DNA of 63,836 bases, filler included, from Reclinomonas americana ATCC 50394 (GCA_048213135.1; 8 parts of 5 records of this genome joined end to end with filler, not necessarily neighbours in it); one strand, 5' to 3'; positions 1,106 to 63,836 are shown, numbered from the whole stretch's first letter. The notes: generated by a model from the letters alone, not told the origin. A program made the numbers and translations.

Positions 1106-3015
1106 ATGTGGTCTTCCATACGCAGTGCAAGTCCTTTCCCACTGGAGCCACACGCACCGGGCAGTGTGTTTGTGGAGCGCGGAATGCGACATGTGGTGCC
1201 GTATTTCGACGACTTGTCGATGCACGCAAAGCGTGAGAGACAACTCCGCTCGCGCACTACGAGACGCTGCAGATCGCTGACTTGTGTGTGTGTCTCACTG
1301 TAGAGCGACACTATGGGCGATCGTTGATCGATGTGTTGCAGAATGAGTGGCGAGTTGAGTGCATTGTTGATGGTGGTGATCAGTCAGTGCGTTCTGATCG
1401 TCGTCCTCGCAGACCTTTGATCGGCAGTGGTATGCCGCATCGCTGGCTAACGGGCGCATCCGACTGAACGGTCGACTGGCCAGAGGAGGTATGCTCGTGC
1501 ACCTTGCATCTTCATGTCTCTGTCTCGCTTTCTCATCGAGAGTGCATGAGGCAGACGAGGTGCTCGGCAACCGCGATGTCATCTCTCAGTTTCTGCATCG
1601 TCACGAATCGCCCGTGTTGGCCGTGGAGCCGACGATCATTCGCGTGTACGAATCAGAGCTGGTCGCCGTCGACAAACCATCGTCGTGGCCTGTGCATCCG
1701 TGCGCCGGCAGGTGAGCCCTCTCGTCGCGAGTCAGCAGTGATGTTCTTAAGCTTGCTCATATATGGTTCGAGGTGCCAGATTTCATCGCAACACTGTCGT
1801 CGACTTTATGGCTCGTGTGCTGCAGAGGAACACATATCGTGAGTGTGTGTGTTGTGACTGTCGCTGCATGTGCCGACTGCTGACGGTGATGCAGCCGTGC
1901 ACCGATTGGATCGGTTGACCTCGGGACTCCTCCTGCTGGCCACCAACGTGACCGCTGCGCGGCGAATATCCGAGTTGAGTGCTTGCTCCCCTGCCTTTTC
2001 CTACCGTGCTGTATTTGCGAGGATGGAGTGGCTGATGATTTTGGAGTTGCTGTGCAGTTGGTTCGTCAAGAAGCGCGTACAAAAGTGGTACCTGGCACGA
2101 GCGGCAGGCGAGCTGCAGAGCACGTGCGTCGTCGACCTTGTGGCTCGGTGTGCACGTGATGGTTGCTCACCGATGACATATCGCAGTGCGGAATTCGAGA
2201 TCACCACCGGCCTCGAGTGCATAGACGCGCGTGCCGGAGTGTGGCAGTGCATTCCGGCGGCAGGCCTCGACGAGTCACGCACGGCGACTACACGATTTCG
2301 CCGTCTCTACTTTGATCACTCCGCGAATGAGACCGTCGTCCTGTGTTGCGTTTGTCGTGCGTGCGATGCGAGGGGACAGCTTGGTGGGTGCTGAAACTCG
2401 TCGACTGTCATGCACAGGCATGCCAATCACCGGACGAACCCATCAAGTTGCGTTGCGTCGCAAGTTGTCTTCGCCGTCGGCATGCCAACTCACTCGGGCT
2501 GAACGGGGAGACAGATCCGGCTCCACCTGCAACACATCGGCCATCCCCTGGTCGGCGACCCGTGGTACGGAGTCGGGCAGACAGCCGCCGATCACGCCAT
2601 GACAGAAGATGACCGACGAGTCGCCACACGTGCGTTCCCCGGGCCGGGAGTGACCTTGCCACTCCTCTCTGCCGGCGACAACGACAGCGACAAAGCGCAA
2701 CAGCAACCGAACTTGGAGCCACCGTTCCATTTGCAGGTAGACTCGAACGACAGCACGCGGCAGGGAGAGGCGATATCCCGCATCTTCCGTCGACTGGTGG
2801 CCGAGAATTTTGATCCCCACTGCCCCGTGTGCCACGCCAGCAGTTGCAACAGCGTGGTACGCGACCAGTGGATGACGCGACTGGCCGACCAGCAGCACCA
2901 CATCTGCCTGCACGCAATGCGTGTATTGCTACCCGACGGGCGCGTCATCTCCGCCAAATTGCCGACATGGGTGGACCGAAGCCAGTTGTCGCCTGCCGAC
3001 AGCCAATTCCTCTAG
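1106..3015 (+). CDS. RluA-family RNA pseudouridine synthase (RPUSD2/Rib2-like), multi-exon
   Basis: Spliced motifs VVPYF, HRHE, VDKPSSWPVHP, catalytic VHRLDRLTSGLL, VQKWYLAR, PITGRTHQ|IRLHLQHIGHPLVGDPWY, ICLHA. Confidence 0.92.
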
Positions 3016-3074
3016 AGAATGTGTAAAACGTGACACACACACACACACACACACTGTATACCGGATTCCTTCCT

Positions 3075-3630
3075 TCATTGGTGTCGTTTCCGTGCACCAT
3101 GTCTCACGCCGCCAGCAGGCACAGGTGGCACTCGCGAGGAACCATCTGCGCGCCACTCTGTCAGACCGCGCATGTGACGATACGAGCACGAACACGCACA
3201 CACAGCACCTTTTCTTGTGGTCGACCCACTGCCGTGCCGCATGCCGCCTATTGGCATCGGTGGCGTAATGATGCTCACCGATGGCGTGGCGGTCTCTGCC
3301 GCCATTGACGACGACGACGACGATAATGCAGATCGCTGGGGCGGTGAGTCTGCGCAACCCGAAGCGTTTGATGAGTTTGTGTCGGCATCATCCACCTCAA
3401 CGCGCACATACTCACCGTCGTCGGGTAACCGCGAATACAACGACCATATCGAGTAGGCAAACGAGAACTGTGCGCCACCACAGTCAATCACGGAGCACCG
3501 TGCACCGCGTCCATCACCCGCCGCAACTTCGAGCATTTGCAGGAACAACAGCGAGGCCACCGACACCACAACGTACTTGAACTCGGGATCGGCGACACCG
3601 CCCGGTGGCAACGTGGTGTTGGCCAGCAGG
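3075..3630 (-). CDS. 3' part of a hypothetical membrane protein (runs out of a gap)
   Basis: Hydrophobic FKYVVVSVASLLFLQMLE|FSFAYSIWSLYSRL followed by a Ser-rich tail; two in-frame introns; TGA at 3075. Confidence 0.55.
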
Positions 3631-4681
3631 NNNNNNNNNNNNNNNNNNNNNNNNNNNNNNNNNNNNNNNNNNNNNNNNNNNNNNNNNNNNNNNNNNNNNN
3701 NNNNNNNNNNNNNNNNNNNNNNNNNNNNNNNNNNNNNNNNNNNNNNNNNNNNNNNNNNNNNNNNNNNNNNNNNNNNNNNNNNNNNNNNNNNNNNNNNNNN
3801 NNNNNNNNNNNNNNNNNNNNNNNNNNNNNNNNNNNNNNNNNNNNNNNNNNNNNNNNNNNNNNNNNNNNNNNNNNNNNNNNNNNNNNNNNNNNNNNNNNNN
3901 NNNNNNNNNNNNNNNNNNNNNNNNNNNNNNNNNNNNNNNNNNNNNNNNNNNNNNNNNNNNNNNNNNNNNNNNNNNNNNNNNNNNNNNNNNNNNNNNNNNN
4001 NNNNNNNNNNNNNNNNNNNNNNNNNNNNNNNNNNNNNNNNNNNNNNNNNNNNNNNNNNNNNNNNNNNNNNNNNNNNNNNNNNNNNNNNNNNNNNNNNNNN
4101 NNNNNNNNNNNNNNNNNNNNNNNNNNNNNNNNNNNNNNNNNNNNNNNNNNNNNNNNNNNNNNNNNNNNNNNNNNNNNNNNNNNNNNNNNNNNNNNNNNNN
4201 NNNNNNNNNNNNNNNNNNNNNNNNNNNNNNNNNNNNNNNNNNNNNNNNNNNNNNNNNNNNNNNNNNNNNNNNNNNNNNNNNNNNNNNNNNNNNNNNNNNN
4301 NNNNNNNNNNNNNNNNNNNNNNNNNNNNNNNNNNNNNNNNNNNNNNNNNNNNNNNNNNNNNNNNNNNNNNNNNNNNNNNNNNNNNNNNNNNNNNNNNNNN
4401 NNNNNNNNNNNNNNNNNNNNNNNNNNNNNNNNNNNNNNNNNNNNNNNNNNNNNNNNNNNNNNNNNNNNNNNNNNNNNNNNNNNNNNNNNNNNNNNNNNNN
4501 NNNNNNNNNNNNNNNNNNNNNNNNNNNNNNNNNNNNNNNNNNNNNNNNNNNNNNNNNNNNNNNNNNNNNGAGGGCGCAGAGGCTGAGGTTGGTGTGGTTG
4601 CTGCTGAGGATGAGGCCATCTAATCAATCTTTGTAGAGTCGTCGATTGCAGTGGATGATGGAATCCTTATCTTGTGGCACC

Positions 4682-5632
4682 ATGGGGCGTCAACGTTGCG
4701 TGTCTCAGCTCCTGTGCATGCGTGTGTCTCAATGTGAGAGGGGGAGAGTGTGTGTGTGTGTGTGCGCGCGCTGAGGGTGTGTCTGTCGCCGAGACATGTC
4801 GACTTTCCCGCCTCCTCCTCACACACTCGCATGCGCAGGGCGACAAGTGCAGCTTCCATCAGCACCACCACCACCACAAGCAGTTGTGCATTACACTCCC
4901 GACACACACACACTCACACCAGTCGCTCACTTGCATGTGCGTGTGTGCGCAGGAGGAAGAGGCAGAAGCGGACGACGCAGCCTATGTCGACGACAACGAC
5001 GATGATGTGGTGACTGGCGAGGACGATGAGCAGCAGGAGGGAGACGATGAGGACGACATTGATGATGATGCAGCTGCTCCAGTCCACGATGCATACAACG
5101 ACGATGATGACGACGATGATGATGATGATGAGTCTGACATGTCAGAGTCGGAAGTGCGTGCACTGCGCATGCATCTCGGGCGTCCGTGGAAGCTCGGCCA
5201 CAGAGGAGATGTTGATGATGATGATTATGGGGAGGGAGAGGGGGAGGATGATGACGGCGACGATGGGTTGAGAGCGGCGGTGCATGCGCATCGGTTTCCG
5301 GATGCCGAGAGCTCGGCCACGGCGCAGGTGATGGCGTGGGAGATGCAGGAGCAGGAGGCGAGAGTGACGCGGCATGCGCAGTGGGCGGCGTACATCTGTG
5401 CTGTGGATATGGTGTGTCTGTTGGGAGAAAGGGGGGGGAGAAGAGGAGACAACTGTGTGTGGACTAAAAACGTGCGTGTGCAGGTGCTGTGCTTCCGGCT
5501 GTTCCTGAAAAAGCCACACATCCGCACGGCCTTTGGTCTCCTGTTCTCCTCCAGTGGACTCATTGGATCGCTGTCGCAGAAGAAGGGCATGGTGCTCATG
5601 GTGCGTGTGTGCTCGTACTGTGTGTGTGTTAC
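4682..5632 (+). CDS. 5' part of a hypothetical membrane protein with a long acidic N-terminus (runs into a gap)
   Basis: Asp/Glu tract, then WAAYICAVDM|VLCFRLF...TAFGLLFSSSGLIGSLSQKKGMVLM| with GT-AG introns; start codon uncertain (4655 or 4682). Confidence 0.55.
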
Positions 5633-5952: not shown

Positions 5953-8386
5953 GTCAGACGCTGAGCATTGTGCTCAAGGCCGTCTGTCGACGCAAGTGGC
6001 GCAACTTTAGCTTTGATGTGCTGGAACTGGTGTGTGGCTTTGATGGCGCCGATGAGTTTTTTGGCACGCTGCTGCGTAAGTGTCGAGCTGTTCTCGAGTC
6101 TATTGGCTTTGGTGTGTCTTTTAGTGTGTTTTGCACGTCCGTCGGATGCCTGCGTCGTTGTGTTCACACGGTGGTGCAGTCGAACTGAAGATCGCCGTCA
6201 TGGAGGTGCTGGTCACGGTGGCCATGGCACACTCGAATGTCAACCTCAATGCGCTGCTCGAGTACTTTGTGTTGCACGATCTCACAGAGCCAATACTAGG
6301 GGTCTGTGTTTGTGTGCGTGCCACCTTCTCTTCTCGTCACTGGCTCTGACGGTTGTGTGCTGCTGACAGCTGCTGTGCGAAGTCAATGACAATCAGCAGG
6401 TCGTGCTTGATATTTTCGTGTTTCTCGCCGTGCTGATCAACTATCAGCGGCACGAGGCCGCCAACGTGTACTTGCGCAAACTCAACGAGCTGAAGCGACC
6501 CGAGTACTTTGAGGTGCGTGACCGCTTGTGTGACGGAGATGCCCTCTTATATTCACGTCGATCACAACAGAGTGTGTGTACCTCGCTGTACGTTCTCCTC
6601 TCCACCTGGCATCGAGTGTTTGCCGACTCGTCGCAAGCTCAGTCGGGCCTCCTCCCCTCGCTGTTCTCCATCTTTTCGGTGGTGGCAGAATCGCTCAACA
6701 TTCCTCCATTATTCGCGGCCTCCACCAACTCGTCGCAGACGTTGCGCATGCATGCACCTGTCATTCTTCGTCTTCTCGTCGATCTGTTCAACGCTCTTCG
6801 CGCAGATTCTATGTCATTGGCGCGCCCCTGCTGGTGCTCTTCGAGTTGTGCTGCTCCAACGACGCCTTTCTCACGTTTGTCACCACCGAGATGCCGCGTG
6901 TATGTTTGGCCGTGTACCGCGAACAGTTCACGCAGGCGGTGGTCCAGGAGGGCGGTCCATCGTCGGCACCACCCTCAACGGCAGCAACGGGAGAGAGTGC
7001 CCCGACCGCCGTGTTTCCGGATGCAGGTTCGTGTGCTGTTTATCCTTGTGACTCGTGTGTGTGCGTGTGTGTGTCGACCAACATCTGCCGACAACAGACT
7101 GTTATCTGCCGCCATTCTTGGGCGAGTTTATCATGATCTCCAATGTTATTCTTCTCGACAACAAGAGCGAACGCAATCGCCTCTACTCGAAACTCTGTCT
7201 CCTCATCTACCGGTGTCTGTCGGAGAACCTGGCTGCCTGCCGATTCCTGTTCAGGCAACTGTGCATCTGCAGCATCACCACGTGCTCGCGAGTTGCGTGT
7301 CACAAAGTTCAATCGTGGGGTGGAAACGGCTTGGTGGCTCATGCCTCACCGAGTACGCACGCACCAGGACGGCGAGCGTTTCTATCTCGAGCCGTGGGAA
7401 TTCTGTGGACGTCCCGTGCAGGCCGTATTACCAGTGTTGGCCGGCTACATGCGTAACTTTGCGAAGCGGAACCTGGATGTCGAGATATGGAGGTTTGCCT
7501 TTCTGTGTGTCTCGCCATTCTCCGCGGTGAGCTGACGGAGGAGAGCAGTGTGTGCACCGATGTTTTCCATCGCCTGGTCTGTTACGCACATGCCAACAAG
7601 CACAAGCTGGCGATTGACTGGAAGCTGATGTGGTCGGCGCTGCTGAGGTGGGTGTCATGCTGAGTCTGCAATGTGTTGCTGGTTGCATGTTGACGCGCAG
7701 CTGCACAGCTGCACGCCATTCATCTCCGACGACACAGTCTCGACACCGCGTGGAGAACAATTTTTGATGAATGTTGCGCAGGTGGTGGTGCCGCGCGATG
7801 TTGTGTCGCCCTTTGACTCACCGAGTCCGATTGCAGTATCTCATGACGCTGGAGTTGTGTGTGGTCGGTGGCCAGAAGTTTGTGCCCGACGCCGAGGAGA
7901 TGGATTTCTTGTTTTTTGAGTTGTTGCGATTGGAGGACGAGGTGCTCGCCACCATCCACCTGGGTGCGTGTGTGAACCCCGATTGAGTGGCACTGCGAGT
8001 TTTCACGACCTCATGTGCGTGGTACGCATGTGCACAGGGAGGAAACTGCGCAGTCGGCTGTGCGAGTTTCGGAATCTAGAGGCTGTGTTTACGCATTTTG
8101 GTCCCGTATTACGTGGGCAAGTGTTTCACGAAACCGAAGAGGTCGGTGTACACTTGTTGAACAACGGTGTGTTTCTCTGCGCATTCCCATTGTTTGTGTC
8201 TGTGCGCAGGCACTCGCGGTGCTCAAGTTGCATGCCGATTCGTTTACACCACGAGAGGAAGTAATGGGACTCGTGGACTCGTGGGAGGCCTATCGCCCAG
8301 CCGAGGACCTCGCATATTTCGGGCAGCTGTTGGTACACGTCGCACGGGAGAACTGGGATGTGCGACAACAAGAGGGCGACAAGTAA
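5953..8386 (+). CDS. ARMH3: Armadillo-like helical domain protein 3 (C10orf76/UPF0668 family), 5' end in gap
   Basis: Spliced blocks FDVLELVCGFDGAD, NVNLNALLEYF, FLAVLINYQRHEAANVYLRKL, LYSKLCLLIYRCLSEN, DWKLMWSALL, GQKFVPDAEEMDFLFFELLR follow the ARMH3 motif order. Confidence 0.8.
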
Positions 8387-8552
8387 TTGTAGCAACACAA
8401 TCTCTCTCACACATATTTCATTACCGGAGGCGGGTGGGGGGGACGCCCACGCAGTCTACAAAGGGGGCAAACAGGACACATAACATGTGCACGTGCGCGA
8501 CAGACGCACATGCATACTACGAAGAGGGCTAATTTAGAAGGATGCGCGTCGC

Positions 8553-11500
8553 TCAACTGTCATCCTCGGCTTCCTCAGCTTCCTGTTCTGCAATCGCTTG
8601 CTTGGCCTCGTAGTTGGCTTGTGCTTGTGCCAGCGCATGATGGAAAAGCGTCTGACTCGCTCCCGGCAGTACCGCACAGAGGCCGCCCAAAAACGCACCC
8701 TCGTCTGCAAAAAAACAAATGTCACTTTGTGAGCGAGAAAAACTAGAGCAGCGAGTGTCGGCGTACACTCAAATACGCAACGCTCATTGAGCTCCGCAAA
8801 GAACATGTGCGCATCGACTTCGTCAAGCGGTGACGTGTACGTGGTGATGTCGTCAATTTCCTGACCACGCTCATCCACATCCGGATCATCGACACCAAAT
8901 CGACCCTTGGCTTGAAGCTCGGCGCGCTTCGCCTCGTCAATCTGCGACTCAGCAAAATGAGTTGATCGCAGCAGCAACAAGAACAGCTAGCGGCGCGATA
9001 TCCACTCACGTCTTGCATGAATCGCTGAATCACGAGCGCATCCTCCTTCTCCAGGAAAGCGTCGCCGGACTTTACACGCAAGCGCAGCGCATTTGAGATG
9101 GTGGAAGCGGACACACAAAGGGGGAAACGAGCACGCACCTCAGGCTTCCTTTCGAGTTCGTCGTCGAGGTCAATGATGTCGTTCAGACCGTCATCGTCGT
9201 CGTCGCAGGATGGGTTGTTTTCCGCTGTCGTCCCAAACACACACATTGTCACATTTCAGCAAGTCGAACAAGCAAGAGAAAGGCTCCACACATTAAAGCA
9301 GACCTTCAACAGCATCCGCCAGTCGTGACAGTGCGTCAACCAGCACCTGCAACACCAGTGCAGCGTTCTCCGTCACCAGTGCCGGCACTCCCGGTTGTTG
9401 CATGATCGACAGCAGCGAAATCAGACCGAGGCACGTCATCTTTAGGTCGTGCGAACTGCCGGTGTTTGAAAAGCACAAAAATTGAGTGATTACAATCAGC
9501 AGCAGACGGACCAATGTGCGCGACGCACCGAGTCAATTGCGGAATAGCATCCATCCATTTGGAGAATGCAGCACCAGTGTGGCCGTGGTGCTCCAGCGAC
9601 TGCAATGCCAGCGTCGGGTCGTAGTAGAAGCAATCGGCAATCTGCAACACGACCACGACAGTGAATCCCACAGGCGAAGGAAACGGCGACAAGTCTGTCA
9701 CACGCACCACATCGACCAACTGGATAGTGAAGCGCATCTTCTGTGGCGGCTTGGCCACCAGACGCCTCAACGACATCTCCAGGAACTTGGGTATGCACTC
9801 GTCGATCTTGCCTCTGCACACTCGACGAAGTTAGCCATGGAGGCGAACACTTGTACACACACCCCTCCTCCCCCTCTCACTCGAGAGTCACAGCAAGCGC
9901 GGCAGGTGTCACGAAGTCTCAGTTCAAAGTTGTCATCAACAAAAAAGATTATCAGTGCTTCTTAGAAGGTAAACCATCATAGACTGCGTGCGGCGCTGCA
10001 GGACCCAAACAAGAAATCTTCCTCTCCCCCCTCCACCCCATGCAACTCGCCTGCAGTGATGCAACAGAGCCTCCATCATGATTGCGGCAGCACGAGGCTC
10101 CTTTTCCGACGTATCATTTGTGCTGTCCACACACTGCACGCAAGTGTCCCCCCACGGTCAGCCAACAATGTCGACAGGAGTAGACAAGAGTTGCAGACTG
10201 AGCGACGAACCAACTCGCACATCTCCATCACCATCGCCAAGTAATTGTCTTCCGGGGTACCGCGCAAGAACACGTCCACGTCGTGCGACAGGAAGTTCTC
10301 AAACACCGGTTCAATCTCTGCGCACCACGCGTGAGAAGAGTGGAGACAGTGCCCTCTTCTGTGCACTTCACATCTCACCTTGGAAGTAGTCTCGAGCACC
10401 TCCAGTGACGAACAGCGCATACAGACGACGCATGAATCCATACGTCTGCGGCGAGATCACTTGCGTGACAAACAGGAAACTCGACATGATGCGGCACACT
10501 TCGTCCAAAGAGTCTGCACAAACGGACGGATGTGAGTGTCTCGCGCGCGCATGAGAGACGTGGTGTGAGGTATCGTACAACGCACCGAGCTCCGACTCCT
10601 CGTCCGCCAACATGAGATTGAAAAAGTGGTACAGATACTGTTCCATCTCCAGGTAGATCTCCGGTGACGTCTGCACCGTCTCCAACAGCGTCTGCAGCGT
10701 CTTCAGGGTGGCGATGCCGGAGTAAATAATCTCCTGCGTCGCGTTGCCGTCCTTCATTTCTGCGTGGTAGCCGTAGTACACTTGCAACTGAAAATCACGA
10801 TCAAGTCAGTCAACAGATGGGGGGCGGGACGGGGAGAACAAGGACACACCAGACGATGCAACAGCTCGGCAGCCAGCGGAGAAATAACTTCGCCAAAGTT
10901 GACCACGAGTGCCTCCACTCCCGTCACCAGCTCGTCACTCTCAAACTCCGACATGAGTTGCAGCATCTTCTCCGTCAGCTCCGGCACCAGAGGAGCCAGA
11001 TGTTCGTTGACTGCTCGAAGACGGAGCATACATATTATGAGCACACGAGTAGTGGGGCGAAAAAGGCAATCACACACGTCGCGCCGAAACTCTTGTCCTC
11101 CTGAATAATCTCACGCATGGTTTGCGCCGCGTACACTCGCACCACCAGATCGGTCGAGGTGCACATCGAGTTCCACACACCCTCTGTCAGCTGCAGCAGA
11201 TTGTTGATGTCATTCCACTCGACCAGTGAAAACTTGTACACCAGCGCAATCGCCTGCCACGGGAAACAGTCAGCTCTTTGCCTCCCTCTCTCTCACCGAG
11301 CGAACAAGCATATCACAACGCAACTCGCGCTCGCAGATACACCACATCCGACGACAACTCCGGGTACACGTGAGTCATCAAAAAGCCCTCCATGTCGTGC
11401 TTGTTGCTCGTCGACATCAACAGCACGCCCAACTCTTCCACCNNNNNNNNNNNNNNNNNNNNNNGCGTACAGCGCCGCCTCCTTGTACAGCGTGTTACGC

Positions 11501-13548
11501 TCAGCAGGCGGCTGCGCATTGTACCTGCAGAAATGAACAGGCGGTGAGCCTACACGACGCGGTGAGACACAAAAAGGAAGGAGAACGCAACGAGTCCAAG
11601 AACTGCGAGATAAAATCCAACAGCGGGCGCATTGTCGACTTCTTTGGTCGATTGGCCAACATCGACTCCAGCACCGCACAAGCGGTTTTGCGCACAGACC
11701 GCACCTCATTAGCGACATCTGTGTGCACAGCACACGATTTGGTGAGATCGGGGAGAGACAAGCACTGAGGCACCAGCACCACAAACCATATTCAATGTGC
11801 AAGTAATCGTCGGGGGCCTCACGCCACATTGCCAGTGCCTCGTCGGTGAGCAACACCAACGGGAGGACGTACTCTGTCATGAATGTCAGGGCGTGTGGCC
11901 GAATAATATCCCACGCGTCAGCAAGAGTGATGCTGGGGGAGGGGAAGGAGGCGACGATCATGAGTGATGCGCCCTCTCCACATGGTGGGGAGAAATGAGA
12001 ACAGCTACTCACGCGCACTCGAAAAAGGTGCATGCGTGCACCACAATCGGGTCCGACACCGAGCTCGGGTTGTCTCTCCGCAGCTGCAAGATGTGCAAGA
12101 ATGCCTCCGTGCACGGCGCCGAGCACGACTCCAAGAACCGGGCTGAAAAGAGATTGATGCGTACATCCTTGCTCATTGTTGTCATGCGACCATGTCTGTG
12201 CGGCACACAAACGCGCTATGATGAGCGATGGACGTCCATTGACACGATACACATAACATACACACAGACCTGATAAAGTACTGCGACAATGTGTGTGCCG
12301 CCGCCCTCTTCATCGTCCATATGATGTGCTCGCTGCACACGTCTGGGTGCGTGTTGCCCGGGAATGTCGGCGGCGTGAGATACAACACACGGACCAGCAA
12401 CTCGACCACAGCATTCATAATCTCGAATCTCTCCAAAAAGACCGGCGGCAATTCGCACTGGTGTGGTGGCGCGAGGTCGAGTGTCAATCACCGCGGCGGT
12501 AACGATGACAAAGGCATGAGGCACTCACCGTGGTCATGTACTGCACAATCTTCAAGCACAGCCACGTGTATGTGGCGCGCGCGGCCACCACCGGCGGCAG
12601 GCTCGGTGCGTACTCTGCGCATGTCAACGACTGCGTGAGCTGCCGGAGAAACATTTCCGCAGCACAGCCACCAACAAAACCTTTTCCGTTCAGTTCCGCC
12701 TCCAGCTCCGACACGGTGGTCTGCAGGAACCCGCCAAACACCTCAATCGACTCGGCGCAATAGGCCACCAGTGGGTGACGCTCATCCTTGCGCTTCTTTC
12801 TACAGATTCAAGGGGAAGCAAAGTGAGTGTCTGCGGGGGAGGAAGATGGAGTAAAAAAAGGGAGACGACCCACCTGTACACATAGCAGAACTGCTTGGCC
12901 AAGAGCAGACCCGCATGCACCTCCTCCGGATCGCTGCTCGCCAACAAGCGCGAGATATCGGCGAGGAGCGTGGGAATGCCGCTCTTCTTCTGCACCACTT
13001 CCACACAGTACAACAGCTGATTCCGCACAATCGGCAGCGCCACGACAGTCGCCGCCACAATGTGCTGCAAAAAGTAGTGTTTGTCCTCGTCGTTCAGTGG
13101 CGCGTACAACTCCGGAACGCCAGTCCATCTGTGGCCACAGCACAGAGAGAGAGAGAGGCAGTTGAGCAAGAGGGAGATGAGGTGGGACACGTGAGAGGGC
13201 GAGTGAGATAGAGAGCGGGAGAGAGCGGGAGTCACATTTGAGCTCTTTCACGCACCTGAAGCGGATGAGGTTCTTCAGTTGCACCGAGGCCGCTTGCCGC
13301 ACATGCGGCTCATACTGCGCGTCCAGTGACACCTCAAAGAGCACTTGGATGAAGCCAGCCGAGTTGAACAAGTGCTACCAACACACAAACACAAACAAAA
13401 GCGTGTGTCTGCACATGCGCACATGCCCATGCCCACACACCAGACGCTCACTCACCTGCTCCACGTACTCCGCCGCGCGCTGCCTCTCTGCCGCATCCGC
13501 CAGCGCCGAGTACGACAAGTGCAGAAGATGGGCAAGCTCCGCGCTCAT
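8553..13548 (-). CDS. IPO7: Importin-7/8 (Nmd5/SAD2-like karyopherin beta), about 20 exons
   Basis: IBN_N motif VRQAASVQLKNLIRFRW, MWREAPDDYL, YKEAALY, HVYPELSSDVVYLRARA, IADCFYYDPTLAL, HDLKMTCLGL, acidic C-terminus with YTSPLDEVD. Confidence 0.88.
9915..9985 (-). ncRNA. Intronic box C/D snoRNA, U61/SNORD61-like guide for 18S rRNA
   Basis: Minus strand reads AGTCT-ATGATGG (box C)...CCTTCTAAGAAGCA-CTGA (D')...TGATGA (C')...CTGA (D)-GACT; terminal stem present; the D' guide is complementary to conserved SSU rRNA CUUCUUAGAGGG; it lies in an unusually long importin intron. Confidence 0.85.
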
Positions 13549-17484: not shown

Positions 17485-17558
<74 letters not shown>

Positions 17559-18697: not shown

Positions 18698-18751
18698 CTC
18701 CGATCGTNNNNNNNNNNNNNNNNNNNNNNNNNNNNNNNNNNNNNNNNNNNN

Positions 18752-47086: not shown

Positions 47087-47408
47087 TCATTTCTTGTTCT
47101 TGATCTTGGTTTCTGTAAAGAGAACGTGTTGCTTGACTACGGGATCGTACTTGAGCAGCGCCAGCTTCTTCTGGCCTGTCAACGACCGCGGGTTCTTGGT
47201 CGTTGTGTAGAAGAAGCCCGTGTTGGCTGCACTCTGTGCGTGTGTGTGCGCGCGTGTGAGTGCGTGAGATCGACATGTCGCGGTTACATCACTCCCTGGC
47301 GCTCTCTCCTTCTCTCGCTCTCATGCGCGCGTGTGTGACACAGTGTGTGTGCACATGCAACGCAACAATCAGCCGCACAAACAGCGTCTTCGCCTTGCTG
47401 CGCGCCAT
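47087..47408 (-). CDS. MRPL33: Mitochondrial ribosomal protein L33 (bL33m); exons 47408-47367 and 47233-47087
   Basis: [30 protein letters not shown]...[23 protein letters not shown]. Confidence 0.93.
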
Positions 47409-54980: not shown

Positions 54981-57900
54981 TTCCGTCTGACTCGCTACAG
55001 AGGAGCCTACGTGTCCTTCGTTGTCGGCGTCGGCGGCGTCGGCGGAGGATGTGGTGCGGGCCGAGTGGCTGCTCGGTCGCAGTATCCTGCAATGCTTGCT
55101 TGCTGCGCATCAGCACCAGCTGCGGTCGATCGCGTTCCCGCTGCTGGGCACGACATTCCCCGTGTCTCGGGCGGCTGTTTCGTCGCTTTGTTTCTCGCAC
55201 ACACTGGACGATTTTCCGCCTGCGGCTCACTTTCTGCACGTGCGCAGGCCGTCTTCTTTGAGACTGTACTACGTTTCCTCAGCGATCACAGCTTCACTCC
55301 CGTGGCGTGCATACGCCTGGTTGACACGCGTCGCGACGTTGTGCATGTCATGTGCCAACAGGTTTGTGTGGAAAAGTGTGTCTTGTGAAATCTCGAATGC
55401 GCTTCTCACCCGTGCACATGCGAGATGCAGTTTGACCGCCGTGTTGGCTCGTCATTTGACGCTCGCTCCTCAGGCCTCTCCTCCACCGGTGCCTCGTCGA
55501 CCATTTCACTCTCCTCAGTGCCCGTATTTGATTCGTCGACCGGTGGCCTGCTGGCTCACTCAAGTGGCGGCAGCGGCAGCGCCAGCAGTAGTGTTGGTGG
55601 TGGCCTCGGTGGCAGCGCTAGTGGCAGCGGTGGGGGTACAGCAAGTGGAAACGGCGGCTCATCGCATCGTCGTCTGCGCGGTGCGGCACCGGTGAATCCC
55701 GACATGGCGCTCTCGCTGAGTGGTCGTGTGGGCCAGCAGCGTGCAGAGGTGGAGAAGCTGGCGCGCACTTGTCGTGTGCTCAGTCGATGGCAGCGAGCCG
55801 GCTCCGTCTCCGAGGCGCACCAGTCGGTGGTGGACGCGCAGTTCGATGTGGAAGACAAGGAATCCATGCTGTTGTCGGCGGTCGCCGCGCTTCGTCGTGA
55901 ACTACTGCAGCAGCCACCGCACGAGGAGGGTCTCACGCCGGCGCTGTCGGAGCTCGGGAAGCAGCGAACGTTGGCGGCGATGGCTCTCGAGCAATCGCTG
56001 CAGGGATTGTTGGATGCGCTGGAGTCGGAGCGCCGCGATACGACGGGCGAGCTCGACGCATTGCAGCGTGTGTGGTCCGACATTGTGTCGCGCCACTCCA
56101 CGCCCATTCTCTTCAACGGCGACATTTCGGACTCGTCAGACACAAGTGTGGCCTCCAGTCCCACTCACGCTCTCTCCGATGTCGGTGAGTGAGGTCGCCA
56201 CACTCACTGGTTTTCTTTATCATTCGGCACCACTCACACCACTCATGAATGCAGAGACACGACGGGTGACTCGTGATGGCATTCGGTGGATGCATGCTCA
56301 TGCTGACGCGATTCGACTCGCCGCCGAACGCACACAGCGCGTATGTGCCGAGGGTGGCGAGCTGTCGGAGTGGTTGGAGGCGCTGCAGGACGAAGATGGT
56401 GTGTTGTCGCATGCGCTGACGGCGGGAGTGGCACTGTGGTCCGAGCATGGTGCGCGGTTACGCGGAGCCGTGCAATGTGGCATCGATGAGGTGCGTTTGC
56501 TTGTGGTGGAGTGACTACACCGATTGACGACTGCGTGTGGCTGACTTGGGTTTCTCTCAACAGATGCATCGGCGCCTTGATCGCATTGTCACCGCGGAGC
56601 GAGTGGCCAAGGAGAAGAGATTACAGGCGAGCAAGCATGCGGCGCGACAGCATCGCATTCGACTGGAGGGCGCACTGCACGAATTGAAGCGCCTGGAGTC
56701 CAAGGCCGCACCGGTTCGCTTACTCACAGTATGAGAGAGGTGGTGTGGGAAACTCATGAAGCTGGCTGGTATGCAGGTGGCCTCGGTGGTGTGTGCCGAT
56801 GGAGAGCCGCTGACTCCGCTGTTGGATGTGGTCGCCGGTGACGACGACGAGCACTTCCCCGATGCGCGACTGCTTCGACTCGACGCTGTCAAGGTGAAGT
56901 GATGCACTCATGCATGCACGCACGGAGGTGATTGCTGAAACCACACGCGCACCGTGCAGCAACTGGGCTACATGGTGAAGCTGGTGGCCGCAATGCGCAC
57001 TATGGATGAAATGTTCCCGTACGTATACGCCGTGCGTTATCCTGACATTGCAGTTGGCGAGGTGCGACGCGGTGTGATGTCGAATGCGTGCGTGCGTGCA
57101 TGAGTCGCACTCACACAGCACGTGGTGTCGTAGGTACAATTGAGTCCGCCAGTGACCATGTTCTACGAGGCACTGGTGGCGGAGAGCCGTTCTACCAACG
57201 GCGATGTCTCACATCTGGTGGACGAGTTCACTGTGTACATTGCGGCGTCGCGGCTCGGTGCCGGCATCAAAGTGGAGGTCGACGACTTCTGGGAGGAACT
57301 GCGCGCAGCCGTGTTGTACAATACGAATCGCGATTGGCTGCATAGGGCGCCAAGCACCGCCGTGTCGGTACGCGTCACATGTCGCCGACAAGCTGTGTGT
57401 CGGCAGCGTATCTTACTTGAATTATGTGCAGGGAACTGTGTTGTGGGATTCACTCACCCAGTGGTTGTCGCTTGGACACCCGATCCGCATCCTGTCTCCA
57501 TCGTTCCACGCCGTCGATAGCAAGTTCCTCGACATGCTGCTGACTGCACGCACACAATCGTCGTCGTCTGCCGTCACCTCCACCGGCAAACTTCTTGCGG
57601 TCTCTGTTCTCGGAACCAGCGGCAGTGGCAAGTTGAGTGTTTGGCCGTCCATTAGTTTTCCCAGCCCGACTCACTCAGCGTGCAACATGCAGGTCGACTC
57701 TTCTCAGGGAGCTCTTCCGCTGCGATTTCGAGGTGTCAGACGTGTCACGCAAGCGCGGCGTCATGCTGACACACAAGCCCGTCACTGAGGTTGCTCGCGT
57801 GCGTGATGTGGTTGTGATGGACACGGATGGCCTCGAGTCGACTACCGACCAGGAACGGTTCGTTCTCTCTGTCCTTTTTTGTTGCATGGCAGATCCACTT

Positions 57901-60434
57901 ATACTGTGTTTGTATTCGACGAACAGGTGGAACATGCAACGACTGGCGGTCATGATGCTGGCCGTGTCCAACGTGGTGTTGCTGAATGTGAGCAGTGCGC
58001 GTCTGGAGGAAGATGCTGAGACACTGTGCGAAGCCTGTATGGTGGCACTCAAGCAGGTGAGTGGGACGAAAAGAGAGAGGGAGAGGGAGAGAGAAAGTCT
58101 CGTTTGCTGACGCAGTGCGTGCAGAGTGTCGTGCGCATTGTTCCACCACGCTTCTTCTTCGTGGTCCGTGATGCCAGTGAACTCGCCGACTGGACTGCCA
58201 GTATCCAGCAGACGCTGAGAAGAGCGGCTGAGCGGCATCACATCGATCTGGAAGATCTGCCATTCCTCACCAGTGACGATAGTGTGGTCCACTTGCCGTC
58301 GGTGCGTGGCCATGATGCTTCTTTGTTGTTACTCACTGTGAATGATTTCACTCATGCTGGTCTCTTGTCGCGGGCACACAGCTGCTGGATTTGGACTCGA
58401 CCGCTTGCAGTCTGCTCGAGGATTTGCGGACGACCATCTTTTCGTATGCGAGCTACACTGGTGAGTTCGCACGCTCGTGAACAACCAATCCCCACTGATC
58501 GCGTGCTCATATCTATGTGCACAGCATGGACTGGTCTCTATCGCGATACACTCGTCTGGTGATTCCGATCTCTTTCTGCCCGAATCACTACAACAACAAC
58601 TCACTTTGTGCTTTCTTTCCTACAGGTCCGATCAACGAGACCGCACGTGGTCGCCGGTGCTCGCCGCTCTGGGCCGACCACTGCGCGACGAAGAAGCGCA
58701 TGATTCGCCGTCGCCCGACGCTTCCTCTGGAAGCGAGTTGGCGAGACTGCGTGAACGAGCCGGTGTGATTCAAGAAATGTTGGATAAGCAGTCGTCGCTC
58801 GTGTCGGCACTCTCCAACGTGCGCTCGCTTGCTCGCTCCTCGCCGTGTGTTCTACGAGTCGACGCACTCACTGTTTCCTCATCTGTGCTGTGCAGTTTAT
58901 CGAGACGCACGAGGCTCGCTTGTATGCCATTCGAGACGGCATCGTGGAGACGAGTCGCTTGCGGGAGGCATTCGACACGCTGCGAGTTTCGTGTGCCACC
59001 ATCGTCGACGCTGTTTGTTTTCGTCGCTGATGTAGTGTCGCAGAGCCTCTTGCCGAGCCACCGCGAGCTGCAGCATGCTCTTGCGCTGTGCGAAGTCAGC
59101 TTGACTGACGACAGCGCGCTGCCGAGCGACGATCGCAATGTGCTGAACGTACACCGCAGCTTGCCGCTGGGCCAGCTCATTCTCACCGCCATGAGTGCCA
59201 ACAATGTGTTTGAGTTGCGTACACAACGAGCGCCTCTGGTGTTGCTGTCACCTCACTCACGGTACACGCTGTACAGGGCCACCGAAGCTTATGCGGCGTG
59301 CGGCCTCGACACTGTCCGCGGTACGTTCCGTCAATACGAGGAGACTTCGACGGCGTTCGCTTCCGCCCTGACCGTGCGAGGTGCCCGGCTGACGCCAAGT
59401 GAGTTTCTTCATTGCATACTGCGCGCTGTGCTCGGACTCATCACAGTTGACGCTGCCGCAGTCCTCCTGCTACCGATTCAGCGCATGCAACAGGTGAGAC
59501 TGGCGATCAAATGCCATGTTGCCCGTTTGTTTCGTGTCCTGACGTGTGCGGCCGCAGTACCATTTGTTGCTGGAGCGTGCTATCCGACACACGCCGTCTC
59601 TGTTCCGCACGTACATGCCGATCCGCTCGCCAGACGGCACGTACGGACTCAGTGACAGAATGGATGAAGTGCCGGAGATTGAGCGTGAGAGGCAAGCCTA
59701 TCACTTTGTGCTGCAAAGCGTGAAGGAATTGGAGCTGCGCATGGTTGCGCCAGAGCTGCAAGCATCGCTGGCCTTGCCACCGTCGCGCGGTGATTCTCGT
59801 CAGCTTGTGCGTCACTCTCCGCTAAAGTTGTCGACACCGGCACGACTCTTCCGACACGGCGACACGACGCCTGTGGAGCTGGCTCTCTTTTCCGATTGTT
59901 GCGTGCTCGGCAAGTCCGCCGGCGATTCGTGCATGCTGCTCACGGTGTGGAACGCAGATTTCGTGTTCCGGCGCCCTGTCAGTGCTCGGAAACGGCAGGG
60001 TCGAGAGACAGCCACAGTGTGGCCACTGTCGCAAGTCGTATCGTGTGCAGAAGCCGGTGAACCGCCAGCTGGTGAGTTCCGCGCTGCATGCGCGATGTTG
60101 CTGTGCGTGCTCATTTGGTGATGTGCATGTAGGCCTGAAAGATGCCCGGCTCGGCGGCTTCTGGTTTGCCGTGCAATGCGGCGTGCCAAAGAGCAAGACG
60201 TGCTTGTTTTGGTGCCACGATGAGCGAGAGGTAACTTACTCAAGTGCCTCCTCTTTCTCTCTCTCTCTGTCTCTTCCTCGAGCCTTACGTTGTGTTTCCA
60301 CCCCTCTGCGGCAGGCCAAAGAGTGGGTAAACGACGTCAATCGGTTATTGCGTGCGCAGCGCCGCTTGTCTGACACATCCCTGAACGGCTTCTCCATCTC
60401 ACCCGATCAACGACGAGAGAGAAACAGCGGGCCA
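54981..60434 (+). CDS. Large fusion protein: Macro domain - coiled coil - VLIG/RHD3-type P-loop GTPase - DH (RhoGEF) - PH; both ends in gaps
   Basis: Macro SILQCLLAAHQHQLRSIAFPLLGT; GTPase VSVLGTSGSGK|STLLRELF, VVMDTDG, LAVSNVVLLNV, FFVVRD; DH LLLPIQRMQQ|YHLLLERAIRHTP; PH LALFSDCCVLGK, AKEWVNDV; frame continuous through hand-spliced junctions. Confidence 0.7.
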
Positions 60435-60534
60435 NNNNNNNNNNNNNNNNNNNNNNNNNNNNNNNNNNNNNNNNNNNNTTAATTAATTAANNNNNNNNNN
60501 NNNNNNNNNNNNNNNNNNNNNNNNNNNNNNNNNN

Positions 60535-62531
60535 GGAGCGCCTGCCGGCGGATCCCACCAGACCAGGCAGTCACTCGGGTGGTCACGGTACGCACCATGT
60601 AGCCATGCACACTCTATTTCATAATCATCTCACTGTCTCCTCGCGTTCCAGAGCGTCTGTTCGAGTTCCCTCCGATTCAGCTTCGCAAGTCGTTGCGTCT
60701 CCCGCTCTCGTTCCGTTGGCAGCGGCCGTCGTCTGACTCCTTATCGTTGCACAGCACACCAATGGCGCACCCGATGATGGCCCACGATTCATTGGGGTCG
60801 CTGACCTCGCCGGATCTGGAGGGGGCGGAGCAGGAGGCGCGTGAGTTTGTCAACAAGTTGAATGTGAATCTGCCGGCGGTGAACAGCCGCGGACCAAAAT
60901 CGAGGAGTGTCGGACCGACGCCGCCAGCCAGCAGCCGCGGTGGACCGCCAGTGTCTGCTGGTCGAGTGGTGGGTGGAGGCGGCGCGGGGCAATCGGCCGC
61001 CGCCGCCGCCGCCGCTGGTGCCGCAGGGCGTCCATCTATCGCCAATGTCCGCGCTGGGGCTCGCGGCGCGGTGTCGATTCCACAGCCTCCGGCGGTGGCG
61101 CAACGGCGGCAATCCACTGTCGCTGATGACTCTCCGCCGCTGGTGCTCTCAGATGCTGGCGACTCGGATACCATGGTGAGTGTGCTCGCAACGCCGATTT
61201 CGCTTGCGTGCTTTCTCTTCTCACTCGAGCTTGACAGCCGGACAACGAGACGCCGTCGAGTGTGGCCATGGCTGGTGCAGGTCGGAAGCCGCACCACATT
61301 CCGCAAAAGAGGCGGTTGACCCGCCCCTCGGGCCCCACCATTGTCATCAACAACGGATCTCCACCGAGCAAGTTGCGTCGCCCGCATCGATGCTCTTCGC
61401 ACACAAGGATTTTTCGTTCTCACTCTTTTTTTCCGCTTCACAGAGCAAGTCCATCGCTCGCCACACCATCATTTATGGCCAACGAGCCGCCGGCGGCCGC
61501 GGCAGGAGCCGGTGCAGCGGCCGGGAGGAACCGTATTGTGGCCAATGCGCCGACGGTGGCGCCTCACCGCAAGCCGACTCGCGTGGTCGGCTATGCTGCC
61601 ATTCATCCAACGCAGATGGTGTTCCCAGGCGACGCGGTCGACTCGGAAGACGAGGCTGACGCGGCCGCCGTGATTCCTCTCAGTGGGGTATGTTTTCTCC
61701 ACCATGGTTCTCTTTCTCAACCATTCACTCATCGCACTTGCCTCAGCCGGCCAAACCCGTCCAACCAGTGGGACGTCAGGCTGGTCGAGGGGCCGCCGCT
61801 CCGCGTGGTCGTGTCCGTGCCGGTGTTCGACTGATGGCCAAGGCGGGAGTGCCGGATGGTGTTGGCAAGATCGAGGTGTGTTCAGTTCGGCATGCCGGGT
61901 GGACACACAGTGAGTAGCATGGCTTCTCATTGCGTATGTGTGTGTGTGCAGAGTCCCGACGACAGCACCGGCTCCGACAGCGATGTTGGCGAGCAAGATG
62001 TGCCCGTGGTGGAACCCACAGGCCATGCTGCTGCCGCCCGAGTGTCTGCGGCCTTGCGCAACGGGGTGAGTCGATTGTCGCCCGCCCTCCCACTCCTCCC
62101 TATCTCACTCATTATTTGTGCTGCCCTCCCTCCGCTGCAGCGCGCACCACGGCGGATGAATGCGAATCCACAGACCAAGAGCTCCAGTCCAGTGGTGCAG
62201 CGCGTGGAGAACGGCTCGGGTGGCTCGGGTGCCAGTGGCGCAGCCACTGGCAGCAGCGGCGACAGCGGCAACGGTCGCGGTGGTGCAGCCTCTCTGTCAC
62301 CCGTGCGTAAAGCGGGTGGCGGGCGCAACCGCCTGGCCGACGCCAACCGCAAGCTCGTCTCCATTTACGGTGGCGATCCACTCGGTCCGAAGTCCAAGCG
62401 CGGACGCGCTGCGGCCATGGCCCGCGCCGCCATAGCCGCCCGCTCTGCCGCGCAGGACGTCTCCGCCGATCTGGAGGACGCCAGCGAACCCGGTCCATCC
62501 GACATTAGCGCTGCGCAATCAGAAGTCGACT
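60535..62531 (+). CDS. Disordered Ala/Gly/Ser/Pro-rich multi-exon fragment, possibly the tail of the upstream DH-PH gene
   Basis: GC-rich exons with GT-AG introns; no recognisable domain. Confidence 0.45.
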
Positions 62532-62550
62532 GTTGCGTTTCTTGATTGAG

Positions 62551-62552
<2 letters not shown>

Positions 62553-62630
<78 letters not shown>
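62553..62630. repeat. (GA)n microsatellite
   Basis: Uninterrupted GA run of about 75 nt at a contig end. Confidence 0.95.
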
Positions 62631-62633
<3 letters not shown>

Positions 62634-62816
62634 GNNNNNNNNNNNNNNNNNNNNNNNNNNNNNNNNNNNNNNNNNNNNTTAATTAATTAANNNNNNNNNN
62701 NNNNNNNNNNNNNNNNNNNNNNNNNNNNNNNNNNTTTTATTGTGGGTCGCGCATTGCCTTGATTCATTGGATCGTGTCTCACATGTTTGCATGCAGACGG
62801 AACTGGCGACACACAG

Positions 62817-63413
62817 TGTCAGCAGTCCGCGCAACCAGTCGGCGTCGGCAGGAAGCACACGCTTCGAGTCACGCCCAGTGAACGACGGGCAGAAGATGGA
62901 GATGATTTTGAAGGCGGAGCCTGGCGAGGACAAGATGTTTGCGGCCAAGCAGCGCGTGGAGGCGCCAGTGAGCGAGGAGGCCACGGTTTGTCTCTTTGTA
63001 GTTTGCATTGTGACAGGAAGGTGATCCTCATTATTCATGGTTTATAGTTCCCCCGGAAACACACTCGTACGGTCGAGACGATTCGTCGTGATTCACACGA
63101 CTTGATTCGGGATCGCTCGGACGAGAACCTGCAACGAAAGATGTTTGACCGACGCAAGGCTGGCGATTTTGCACCACAGTTGCGATGACTCTTCTTTCTT
63201 TGTTTGTGCATCTCGCTTGGAGCTCAGTATCCGCTGCACACAGATCTCGCGACATTATCTCTCAACCCGAACAAGTTTCGGCACCGGCATCACCACGTCG
63301 AGCGGCCACGACCAACACGGAGGACGGCTTGAAGCGCAAGATCCGAGAAAAAGTCAACCAGGCCGGATCGAGTGCTGCCACAGTGTTCCGGACACTCACG
63401 CGCGGCAAGGACA
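62817..63413 (+). CDS. Internal exons of a hypothetical protein
   Basis: Three in-frame exons ending LKRKIREKVNQAGSSAATVFRTLTRGKD, possibly leading into an EF-hand-like segment. Confidence 0.45.
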
Positions 63414-63836
63414 GTTGCGTGTCTCCTCACGGTGTGGTTATGTCACATGAGTGTCTCTCGCCTTCTCAGGCATTCTCTCTCACTCGGTGTGTTCTCTGTA
63501 TTTTCTCTCTGTCTTGTTCGACGTGATGTTGCACTGTGTCTCTATGTCATTGTATTCTCTGTCTCCTCTCTCTCCTCACTCTCTCCCTCTTTCTCGCTTT
63601 CTGTCTCTCTATATGAGTATTTGTTTGTGCTTCATAAGGGTCAACTATCTCTCTTCTCTCTCAATCTCGTTATTTTCTCTCACTCAAGTGTTTCGTTCTC
63701 ATTGTTGCTCTCTTTCTGTTATCTCTCTGTGTCTCTTTATCTCGCTGTGCGTTCATGTTTCATCTGTGTCTTGTTGTCTCCTTCCTCCCTCTTGCTCGCT
63801 TTCTCTCCCTTCGCTCCCTCCCTCCCTCTCTCTCTC

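Follow-up and report, generated by a model that had tools for sequence, protein, structure and literature searches.

The question raised by this stretch of DNA is whether the introns of its genes are cut at one class of 5' splice site (donor) or at two. The stretch, referred to here as the window, comprises 63,836 nucleotides of Reclinomonas americana ATCC 50394 (GCA_048213135.1) and is a stitched scaffold (63.8 kb) with a G+C content of about 58% of called bases and 21 runs of N, in which genes are dense and carry numerous short introns. An earlier note on this DNA described ordinary donors of the form GTNNGT, with G at intron position +5, and listed 42 introns whose donors were said to carry GTTGCG, GTTTCG or GTTGAG, words that place the G at +6. 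All 42 coordinates start with GT and 41 hold the named words (29 GTTGCG, seven GTTTCG and five GTTGAG), the description failing at 4883, where GTTGTG is found. Judged from the sequence, this second donor class, with G at +6, is with high confidence both real and abundant.

The census rests on a donor-neutral Viterbi gene finder, in which introns run from GT to AG and are scored with a 3-periodic coding model (seeded with Pfam-matched stretches and then self-trained), an intron interior composition taken from base +11 and an acceptor matrix. The neutral parse contains 139 introns, with donors picked among 3688 sense GT sites of the gene spans. Its most enriched donor hexamer is GTTGCG, used at 19 of 43 sites and making up 19 of the 139 donors against 1.62 expected (p 9.6e-17); GTGCGT (14 of 63 sites), GTGAGT (9/31) and GTTTCG (4/18) are enriched as well. 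In a reversed-sequence control 12 introns were predicted, none of them at GTTGCG despite 22 copies on offer. The window holds 83 copies of this hexamer on both strands, where the mean for a hexamer is 29, and within gene spans 45 copies are sense and 22 antisense. An unsupervised mixture of two matrices and a noise term, applied to the 139 neutral donors, separated gaG^GTGcGT from agt^GTTGCGT (the caret marks the cut), with the log-likelihood rising from -1771.6 to -1683.0.

Feeding the learned donor mixture back over three rounds gave a refined parse of 169 introns, 162 of them obtained directly and seven from a gene piece earlier lost to overlap filtering; its counts depend on donor preferences that the model took from these same introns, while those of the neutral parse do not. 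The commonest refined-parse donors are GTTGCG (27), GTGCGT (25), GTGAGT (16), GTGTGT (14) and GTTTCG (8). With class 2 defined as GTT[G/T][C/A]G, and GTNNGT donors counted as ordinary (class 1), class 2 accounts for 39 of the 169 refined donors (23%); the neutral parse, which is noisier, has 23 of 139 (17%), and the former estimate of roughly a fifth of introns is a fair one. Ordinary donors are also as formerly described, 77 of the 169 being GTNNGT and 108 having G at +5. Class-2 donors occur in 17 of the 26 intron-bearing gene models, which include most multi-intron genes of the window. When the 42 listed donors were imposed on the neutral parse, 20 proved to be in the best parse already and 12 more cost 2.3 nats or less; the refined parse recovers 30 of the 42 and adds nine more of class 2.

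The host genes were recognised by a Pfam run on the 150 longest stop-to-stop open reading frames (ORFs) and, of the 169 predicted exons with 20 codons or more, on 150. As the exons are mostly too short for a profile match, Pfam supplied coordinates at just a few junctions. The genes named below are:

About 1.3-2.6 kb, plus strand: RluA-type pseudouridine synthase gene
8.2-13.5 kb, minus strand: importin-beta-like gene
18978-25158, plus strand: ferlin-like gene A (C2, FerI)
25036-30818, minus strand: ferlin-like gene B (C2, FerI)
37.0-37.8 kb, minus strand: thymidine kinase (TK) gene
46-47.4 kb, minus strand: MADS-box gene and ribosomal protein L33 gene
48.8-52.1 kb, minus strand: NADPH-oxidase-like gene
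57.2-60.4 kb, plus strand: P-loop GTPase gene

The class-2 sites follow by position, each with three exon bases before the caret. Costs in nats are those of the constrained neutral parses, and "new" marks sites beyond the 42.

1354..1360, plus: donor cga^GTTGAGTG; RluA-like gene; phase-0 join open; 5.8 nats; plausible, putative
1974..1980, plus: donor cga^GTTGAGTG; RluA-like gene; phase-2 join open; 84-nt intron; 10.1 nats, gene not called
2345..2351, plus: donor tgt^GTTGCGTT; RluA-like gene; phase-1 join runs into ..ITGRTHQ
2447..2453, plus: donor caa^GTTGCGTT; RluA-like gene; phase-0 join gives GRTHQ^IRLH
3395..3401, minus: donor cgc^GTTGAGGT; new; refined parse only; weak
3521..3527, minus: class-2 word gaa^GTTGCGGC; listed earlier; 4.1 nats; joins open in all three phases; putative
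4695..4701, plus: donor aac^GTTGCGTG; neutral best parse
4883..4889, plus: gca^GTTGTGCA, outside the three named words; 1.1 nats; low-complexity exon
6741..6747, plus: donor gac^GTTGCGCA; neutral best parse
7292..7298, plus: class-2 word cga^GTTGCGTG; 12.6 nats; exon in the gene-finder parse; putative
8551..8557, minus: donor aca^GTTGAGCG; new; refined parse only, 231-nt intron; weak
8775..8781, minus: donor agc^GTTGCGTA; importin-beta-like gene; neutral best parse
11084..11090, minus: donor aga^GTTTCGGC; neutral best parse
11318..11324, minus: donor cga^GTTGCGTT; neutral best parse
11585..11591, minus: donor ctc^GTTGCGTT; neutral best parse
19011..19017, plus: donor att^GTTGCGTT; ferlin-like A; 0.8 nats; acceptor uncertain (478 nt in the parse, shorter likely)
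19418..19424, plus: donor cag^GTTGAGTG; G at -1; 5.3 nats; join open in phase 0 only
20158..20164, plus: donor ctt^GTTGCGTC; ferlin-like A; neutral best parse; matches 30270 in position and phase, ungapped
21002..21008, plus: donor att^GTTGCGTG; matches 29412 of the paralogue in position and phase, ungapped; 1.7 nats
21137..21143, plus: donor tgc^GTTGCGTC; matches 29276 of the paralogue; sole frame-keeping GT..AG within 15 nt
23443..23449, plus: donor gcc^GTTTCGTC; paralogue has ordinary ctg^GTGTGT at the equal position (27010)
24486..24492, plus: donor act^GTTGCGCA; paralogue has acg^GTATGT at the equal position (25680); both SMT^HPNF
25269..25275, minus: donor atg^GTTGCGTC; G at -1; 2.0 nats; in refined parse
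26228..26234, minus: donor gct^GTTGCGTC; ferlin-like B; 2.3 nats; in refined parse
28673..28679, minus: donor caa^GTTTCGTC; paralogue has cag^GTGCGC at the equal position (21714)
29270..29276, minus: donor aga^GTTGAGTT; matches 21137 of the paralogue
29406..29412, minus: donor att^GTTGCGCA; matches 21002 of the paralogue; no other GT..AG within 15 nt
30264..30270, minus: donor ctt^GTTGCGTT; matches 20158 of the paralogue
30811..30817, minus: donor ctc^GTTTCGAA; new; refined parse only, 168-nt intron; weak
34568..34574, plus: donor act^GTTGCGTG; neutral best parse
35041..35047, plus: donor aga^GTTGCGGT; new; refined parse
36802..36808, plus: donor ttt^GTTGCGTT; 1.2 nats
37597..37603, minus: donor cca^GTTGCGCA; TK intron 2 (81 nt); homology
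37806..37812, minus: donor gaa^GTTTCGCG; TK intron 1 (63 nt); join ungapped against homologue N-termini; 2.0 nats
38477..38483, plus: donor cat^GTTGCGTC; 10.8 nats; open in phase 0 only
40050..40056, plus: donor atc^GTTGCGTG; new; neutral and refined parse
41290..41296, plus: donor gca^GTTTCGTG; new; refined parse
42730..42736, plus: donor agc^GTTTCGTG; neutral best parse
43227..43233, plus: donor cga^GTTGCGCA; new; neutral and refined parse
46545..46551, minus: donor gct^GTTGCGTT; MADS-box gene; SRF-TF profile; 7.7 nats
47360..47366, minus: donor att^GTTGCGTT; L33 gene; neutral best parse; L33 profile
49493..49499, minus: donor atc^GTTGCGTT; new; NADPH-oxidase-like gene; refined parse
51335..51341, minus: donor gct^GTTGCGCT; NADPH-oxidase-like gene; neutral best parse
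55177..55183, plus: donor gct^GTTTCGTC; 0 nats in the constrained test; in refined parse; first neutral pass took 55190
57632..57638, plus: donor caa^GTTGAGTG; GTPase gene; phase-2 join, 61-nt intron, P-loop; 0.6 nats
58986..58992, plus: donor cga^GTTTCGTG; 0.6 nats
59214..59220, plus: donor tga^GTTGCGTA; 2.0 nats
61372..61378, plus: donor caa^GTTGCGTC; new; neutral and refined parse
62532..62538, plus: class-2 word act^GTTGCGTT; 14.2 nats; intron enters (GA)n repeats and a spacer of the scaffold; putative
63179..63185, plus: donor aca^GTTGCGAT; neutral best parse
63414..63420, plus: donor aca^GTTGCGTG; neutral best parse; acceptor uncertain (275 nt)

Where the cut falls at these sites can be read from homology, which gives support of this type for 17 of the 42 listed donors. 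Removal of the introns restores ungapped alignment in the TK, RluA-like, L33 and MADS genes and between the ferlin-like paralogues. In the TK gene, removal of intron 2 (37603..37523) leaves no gap against human TK1, nor against 98 of 104 homologues, and no other GT..AG pair within 15 nt of either end keeps the frame. The two ferlin-like proteins share 59-65% identity, and their genes have 15 intron positions in common, all of equal phase and 14 in ungapped context. At three of these positions class 2 is present in both copies (20158/30270, 21002/29412 and 21137/29276), and at three others the class has switched while the intron stayed in place: cag^GTGCGC against caa^GTTTCG (21714/28679), ctg^GTGTGT against gcc^GTTTCG (27010/23443), and acg^GTATGT against act^GTTGCG (25680/24486), the last pair with SMT^HPNF in both proteins. 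These pairs and switches together indicate that the class is old, stable and interconvertible, and that the cut lies directly 5' of GTT. The C2 profile, moreover, picks up at position 20 after both the 20158 and the 30270 introns.

Further junctions are fixed by conserved motifs, and the cuts formerly described as forced by GRTHQ, the P-loop, the MADS box, L33 and both TK introns have held, since the joins restore motifs, profile coordinates or ungapped alignment. Splicing at 1974 in the RluA-like gene makes the stretch after HRLD..TSG equal in length to that of E. coli RluA, and the joins at 2345 and 2447 build ..ITGRTHQ^IRLH, where E. coli RluA has ITGRSHQLR; the PDB search (phmmer) with this ORF aligned across in-frame introns, and the junction was read by eye. 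At 2447-2458 (plus strand) two overlapping class-2 words stand 5 nt apart in a tandem, GTTGC-GTTGC-GT, and only the first of them keeps the frame. In the MADS-box gene the exon downstream of donor 46551 begins exactly at position 24 of the SRF-TF profile. A 21-nt micro-exon (46552-46572, minus strand), coding for D-G-L-V-K-K-A of the MADS box, stands between an upstream, pyrimidine-rich intron and this class-2 donor. The exon downstream of L33 donor 47366 fits positions 14-47 of the L33 profile from its fourth residue onwards, and in the GTPase gene the 61-nt intron at 57632, spliced in phase 2, yields the P-loop GSG(K)STLL. This donor is followed by a pair of CAG acceptors separated by 15 nt (57632-57707, plus strand), of which only the upstream one keeps the P-loop serine/threonine; the gene finder took the downstream one, and the two may form an alternative acceptor pair.

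In all but their donors, class-2 introns resemble their neighbours. Median length is 71 nt, against 70 nt for ordinary introns (p 0.35), the interior composition is alike and the acceptor Y-R-C-A-G is common to both classes; in the refined parse, where all introns are GT..AG by construction, CAG ends 38 of the 39 class-2 introns. A class-specific branch-site k-mer was looked for in the last 45 nt of the introns and none was found, and CTRAY lies close to the 3' end of 6 class-2 introns (of 39) and 16 class-1 introns (of 77). Interior 10-mers are held in common by 18 of 741 class-2 pairs and 78 of 2926 class-1 pairs. On these sequence features the class-2 introns are most probably true GT-AG introns of the U2 type. 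Towards their 3' end TGTG is less common than in the other introns (9/39 vs 74/130).

The sharpest difference between the classes lies on the exon side of the cut. In the refined parse G stands at -1 in 68 of 77 GTNNGT donors and in 1 of 39 class-2 donors (Fisher p 8e-21), and in the neutral parse in 38 of 45 and none of 23, respectively (p 2.5e-12); among the 108 refined-parse donors with G at +5 its frequency is about 0.89. Only two listed class-2 donors, 19418 and 25275, have it. The class-2 -1 base is unlike the ordinary -1 base (34.4 G expected, 1 observed) and comes close to what ordinary donors have at -2 (chi-square p 0.049). A single letter separates the heptamer G^GTGCGT from ^GTTGCGT. 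The class-2 motif consists of T+3 (1.0), G+4 (0.79), C+5 (0.90-0.96), G+6 (1.0) and T+7 (0.67-0.69), and when the profiles are aligned slot by slot the ordinary and class-2 values are 0.64-0.69 and 0.79 for the first G, 1.0 and 1.0 for the second, and 0.67-0.71 and 0.67-0.69 for T. Intron phases 0/1/2 are distributed 46/23/8 among GTNNGT donors and 14/13/12 in class 2, a difference that may follow from the requirement for G at -1. The ordinary donors are odd in their own right, with G at -1 in 81-89%, G+3 at about 0.65-0.7 and C or T at +4 at about 0.65-0.72, and GTAAGT is nearly unused (6 copies on both strands); this profile fits a reader that prefers GGUGCGU.

These features can be brought together in one explanation, to which a probability of about 0.5 is given. 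The class ^GUUGCGU, with GUUUCGU and GUUGAGU as minor forms, accounts for some 20-25% of donors and would be the ordinary heptamer G^GUGCGU displaced by one base into the intron, with U replacing the second G. A single recogniser, the small nuclear ribonucleoprotein (snRNP) of U1 first and probably U6 next, would read G[G/U]UGCGU as one footprint, in which G(+1) of the intron would stand where ordinary sites have the exonic G(-1). The cut would fall just ahead of the footprint's first GU, one base upstream of the usual place relative to the paired G and U at +6/+7, and U6 would have to make room for one more U separating the cut from the bases that it pairs with. The class had been described as ordinary words with an extra T, read in a shifted or bulged register: the words do fit, and the absence of G(-1) favours the shift over a bulged U. 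As a shifted register entails, the ordinary consensus is displaced by one base and G(+1) stands in the G(-1) slot. The shifted-register mechanism taken by itself, with the RNA or protein that would read the class and the register it would use, is tentative and falls a little short of even odds. The more specific form, in which the seat of U1 (possibly also of U6) on the footprint G[G/U]UGCGU is uncoupled by one base from a cut before the first GU on about a quarter of introns, through a re-tuned reader (such as a U1 with its 5' end altered opposite +3/+4, an additional U1, or an altered hand-over factor), is doubtful.

Registers of this kind have precedents, since experiments in human cells document shifted and bulged registers for U1 (PMC4856993) and non-canonical ones for U6 (PMC11162779). 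The human shifted (+1) sites (Roca and Krainer 2009, per PMC4856993) keep GU at the cut while U1 pairs one position further into the intron and G(+1) takes over the place of the exonic G(-1), as is proposed for the window; the human model site, like the window class, has no G at -1. They are, however, a handful with long A/U-rich complementarity to U1 (PMC4856993), whereas the window class makes up about 23% of donors, holds the commonest hexamer and consists of a G/C-rich GUUGCGU that pairs poorly with human-type U1. Validated noncanonical registers make up 1.5% of 201,541 human sites, with 68 sites predicted for the +2/+3 bulge (PMC4856993); shifted and bulged registers, formerly described as a minority case in mammals, are minorities of 0.03-1.5% among human sites, against 39/169 in the window. 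The +2/+3 bulge (Roca et al. 2012; Tan et al. 2016, PMC4856993) likewise has an extra U with the consensus restored one base later; it differs in its frequency, 68/201,541 against 39/169, and in that the window class lacks the exon G. Parker et al. 2022 (per PMC10581693) divide the 5' splice sites of U2-type introns into two major classes, the potential to interact with U5 on the exon side being anti-correlated with that for U6 on the intron side; one class leans on the exon G and the other on the intron motif, and homologous sites can differ between them. The anti-correlation of exon-side G and intron-side motif is found in the window as well, the common register with G at +5 is not: in plants and animals the G+5 and a single register are kept and the contrast is quantitative, whereas in the window the class that leans on the intron motif sits one base further on, and the -1 G falls from 88% to 3%. 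The dichotomy may be an extreme, one-base-shifted form of the Parker contrast. At the STAT3 tandem donor, U6 acts in a non-canonical register and can set the cut independently of the U1 seat (PMC11162779), which is the freedom of register that the window class would need, although that case concerns a single human exon and mutagenesis.

Several points weigh against the displaced-footprint explanation or against the ground on which it stands. The duplex of class 2 with the human-type U1 5' end, as printed in PMC4856993 and possibly not that of this host, has a mean best energy of -1.8 kcal/mol, weaker than that of the same sites with their flanks shuffled (-3.4) and of ordinary donors (-6.7); the duplexes are weak in all registers and only some of the optima are shifted. 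C at +5 is present in 90-96% of class-2 donors against 37-44% at the corresponding ordinary slot, and standard U1 leaves this base unexplained because C is a mismatch there. G precedes non-donor sense GTT in only 13% of cases, and with such a background class 2 looks unselected at -1 and not clearly similar to slot -2. Anti-correlated exon and intron strength is general among 5' splice sites (PMC10581693) and could remove the -1 G with no shift at all, so the missing -1 G is suggestive of a shift and not proof of it. All junctions, moreover, rest on homology, reading frame and a gene finder trained on the same 64 kb, and under the neutral model ten of the 42 have costs above 4 nats (1354, 1974, 2345, 2447, 7292, 19418, 38477 and 62532 on the plus strand; 3527 and 46551 on the minus strand). 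Among these, 1974, 2345, 2447 and 46551 have motif or Pfam support, and the joins at 1354, 19418 and 38477 are open and sensible. Four belong to the RluA-like gene, and their cost arises because the coding model fails to call that gene; 38477 is costly (10.8 nats) because the gene-finder model begins its gene later, and 46551 (7.7 nats) because the upstream 21-nt micro-exon is absent from the gene-finder model.

The weak pairing with human-type U1 speaks for a dedicated reader, which is an unlikely alternative and yet the strongest one: a second U1 variant, another snRNP, or a single U1 with an altered 5' end (e.g. at positions 5-6) would match GUUGCGU. Class 2 pairs worse with human-type U1 than shuffled controls in every register, and its motif is tighter than the ordinary one and lacks an exon-side signal, which a separate recogniser would lead one to expect. 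The ordinary G+3 (0.64-0.69), the C/T at +4 and the scarcity of GTAAGT also fit an end complementary to GGUGCGU better than the standard end. A hypothetical U1 5' end complementary to GGUGCGU, with positions 5 and 6 unlike those of human-type U1, gives -9.7 kcal/mol for ordinary donors, -6.5 for class 2 and -5.7 for class 2 with shuffled flanks, so that even there class 2 barely beats its own shuffled flanks (-6.5 vs -5.7). In about 230 yeasts, donor preference has switched while the U1 sequence ACUUACC and the U6 sequence ACAGA are unchanged, the switches tracking METTL16 and SNRNP27K (PMC10581693). Such invariance of U1 and U6 gives the dedicated reader a low prior, and since these switches came without a change in U1 or U6, a protein factor is at least as likely as a change in a small nuclear RNA (snRNA). 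The possibilities are then that the reader has been re-tuned, that there is a second reader, or that the specificity is protein-borne.

Considerably less probable is a bulged register, with U1 (and U6) seated normally, the U at +3 looped out and GCGU placed in the +3 to +6 slots. The extra U and the consensus restored downstream are what such a register would produce, the words being ordinary words plus one T, and the +2/+3 bulge register has been validated in human cells (PMC4856993). A bulge should nevertheless leave the exon G(-1) free to pair and no less favoured than at ordinary sites, and this G is not retained (1/39 against 68/77, and 0/23 in the neutral parse); the duplex with human-type U1 is, in addition, not predicted to be stable.

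A still smaller chance is left to an artefact, in which there would be no second class, only introns mis-spliced by hand and by the gene finder alike, or a sequencing error that adds a T. The ten of 42 listed donors disfavoured by the neutral model and a stitched scaffold with 21 N runs would speak for it. Against it stand the enrichment in a donor-blind parse (p 1e-16) with none in the reversed control, the 17 junctions fixed by homology, and old paralogues that both carry the word at three positions. A T-adding sequencing error was considered and rejected, as removal of the T would break the reading frame and the paralogues agree.

That the cut falls one base later, as G^UUGCGU, so that introns start with UU and end one base past AG, is very improbable. 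It would explain the missing -1 G trivially and keep U1 and U6 in one register, and several junctions give the same or a similar residue under both models (Q at TK intron 2). The frame-consistent 3' end, however, lies directly after C-A-G in 38 of 39 introns, and an AGN end would have an unconserved N (A 0.33, C 0.18, G 0.31, T 0.18). By codon reading the later cut gives D at 24486 in place of the H conserved in the paralogue, and G at 47366 in place of S. U at +1 is not known for spliceosomal introns. No more credible is a separate intron type, either U12-like (minor spliceosome) or a recently spread introner family with its own donor, for although a long, tightly conserved 5' motif without exon-side signal recalls U12-type introns, comparison with U12 donor and branch motifs led to rejection of the former (the donor word differs, there is no conserved branch word, and acceptor, length and composition are ordinary), and the latter was rejected on the lack of any excess of common interior 10-mers and on paralogues that switch class at a fixed position.

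Registers of the shifted and the bulged kind are already known, and what appears to be new is a genome with such a word as its commonest donor. Among the papers listed by a literature search for the donor word, none was on splicing by title or abstract, though figures and supplements could hold such a logo, and among the top-ranked matches of a search for register terms, the papers that use such a term concern human sites. What is understood of the hand-over from U1 to U6 and U5, and of the freedom of register that it tolerates, comes mostly from single human or yeast substrates. If a one-base-displaced donor is the commonest word throughout the genome, class 2 would offer hundreds or thousands of natural substrates beside ordinary donors, interconverting with them at fixed intron positions, and would point to what changed in the machinery, whether snRNA or protein. 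The class would in this way be a natural test case for the choice of cut site by the splicing machinery. Gene finders with one donor matrix would mis-annotate about a quarter of introns in the organism and its relatives.

In a collection of 5.8 billion proteins that lacks the proteome of the organism and those of close relatives, the best matches to TK exon 3 are 66-69% identical and come from metagenomes, slime moulds and transcriptomes. A ferlin-like ORF found five distant matches among longer proteins (24-33% identity), and a ferlin-like exon matched nine loci in a metagenome scan (27-30% identity). A scan of the window with Rfam at gathering thresholds and with ARAGORN gave no match and no snRNA gene.

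The scaffold itself contains seven 100-nt spacers, each consisting of 44 N, TTAATTAATTAA and 44 N, which are contig linkers with stops in all frames; gene structures that span these inter-contig linkers are therefore unreliable:

18708-18807, 30886-30985, 34078-34177, 44763-44862, 54842-54941, 60435-60534 and 62635-62734: spacers

The ferlin-like paralogues A and B are arranged tail to tail, and their 3' ends almost touch or overlap. Microsatellites of the types (CA)n/(TG)n and (GA)n/(TC)n, found for instance at 62550-62630, account for the most frequent hexamers of the window, and some of them are intronic.

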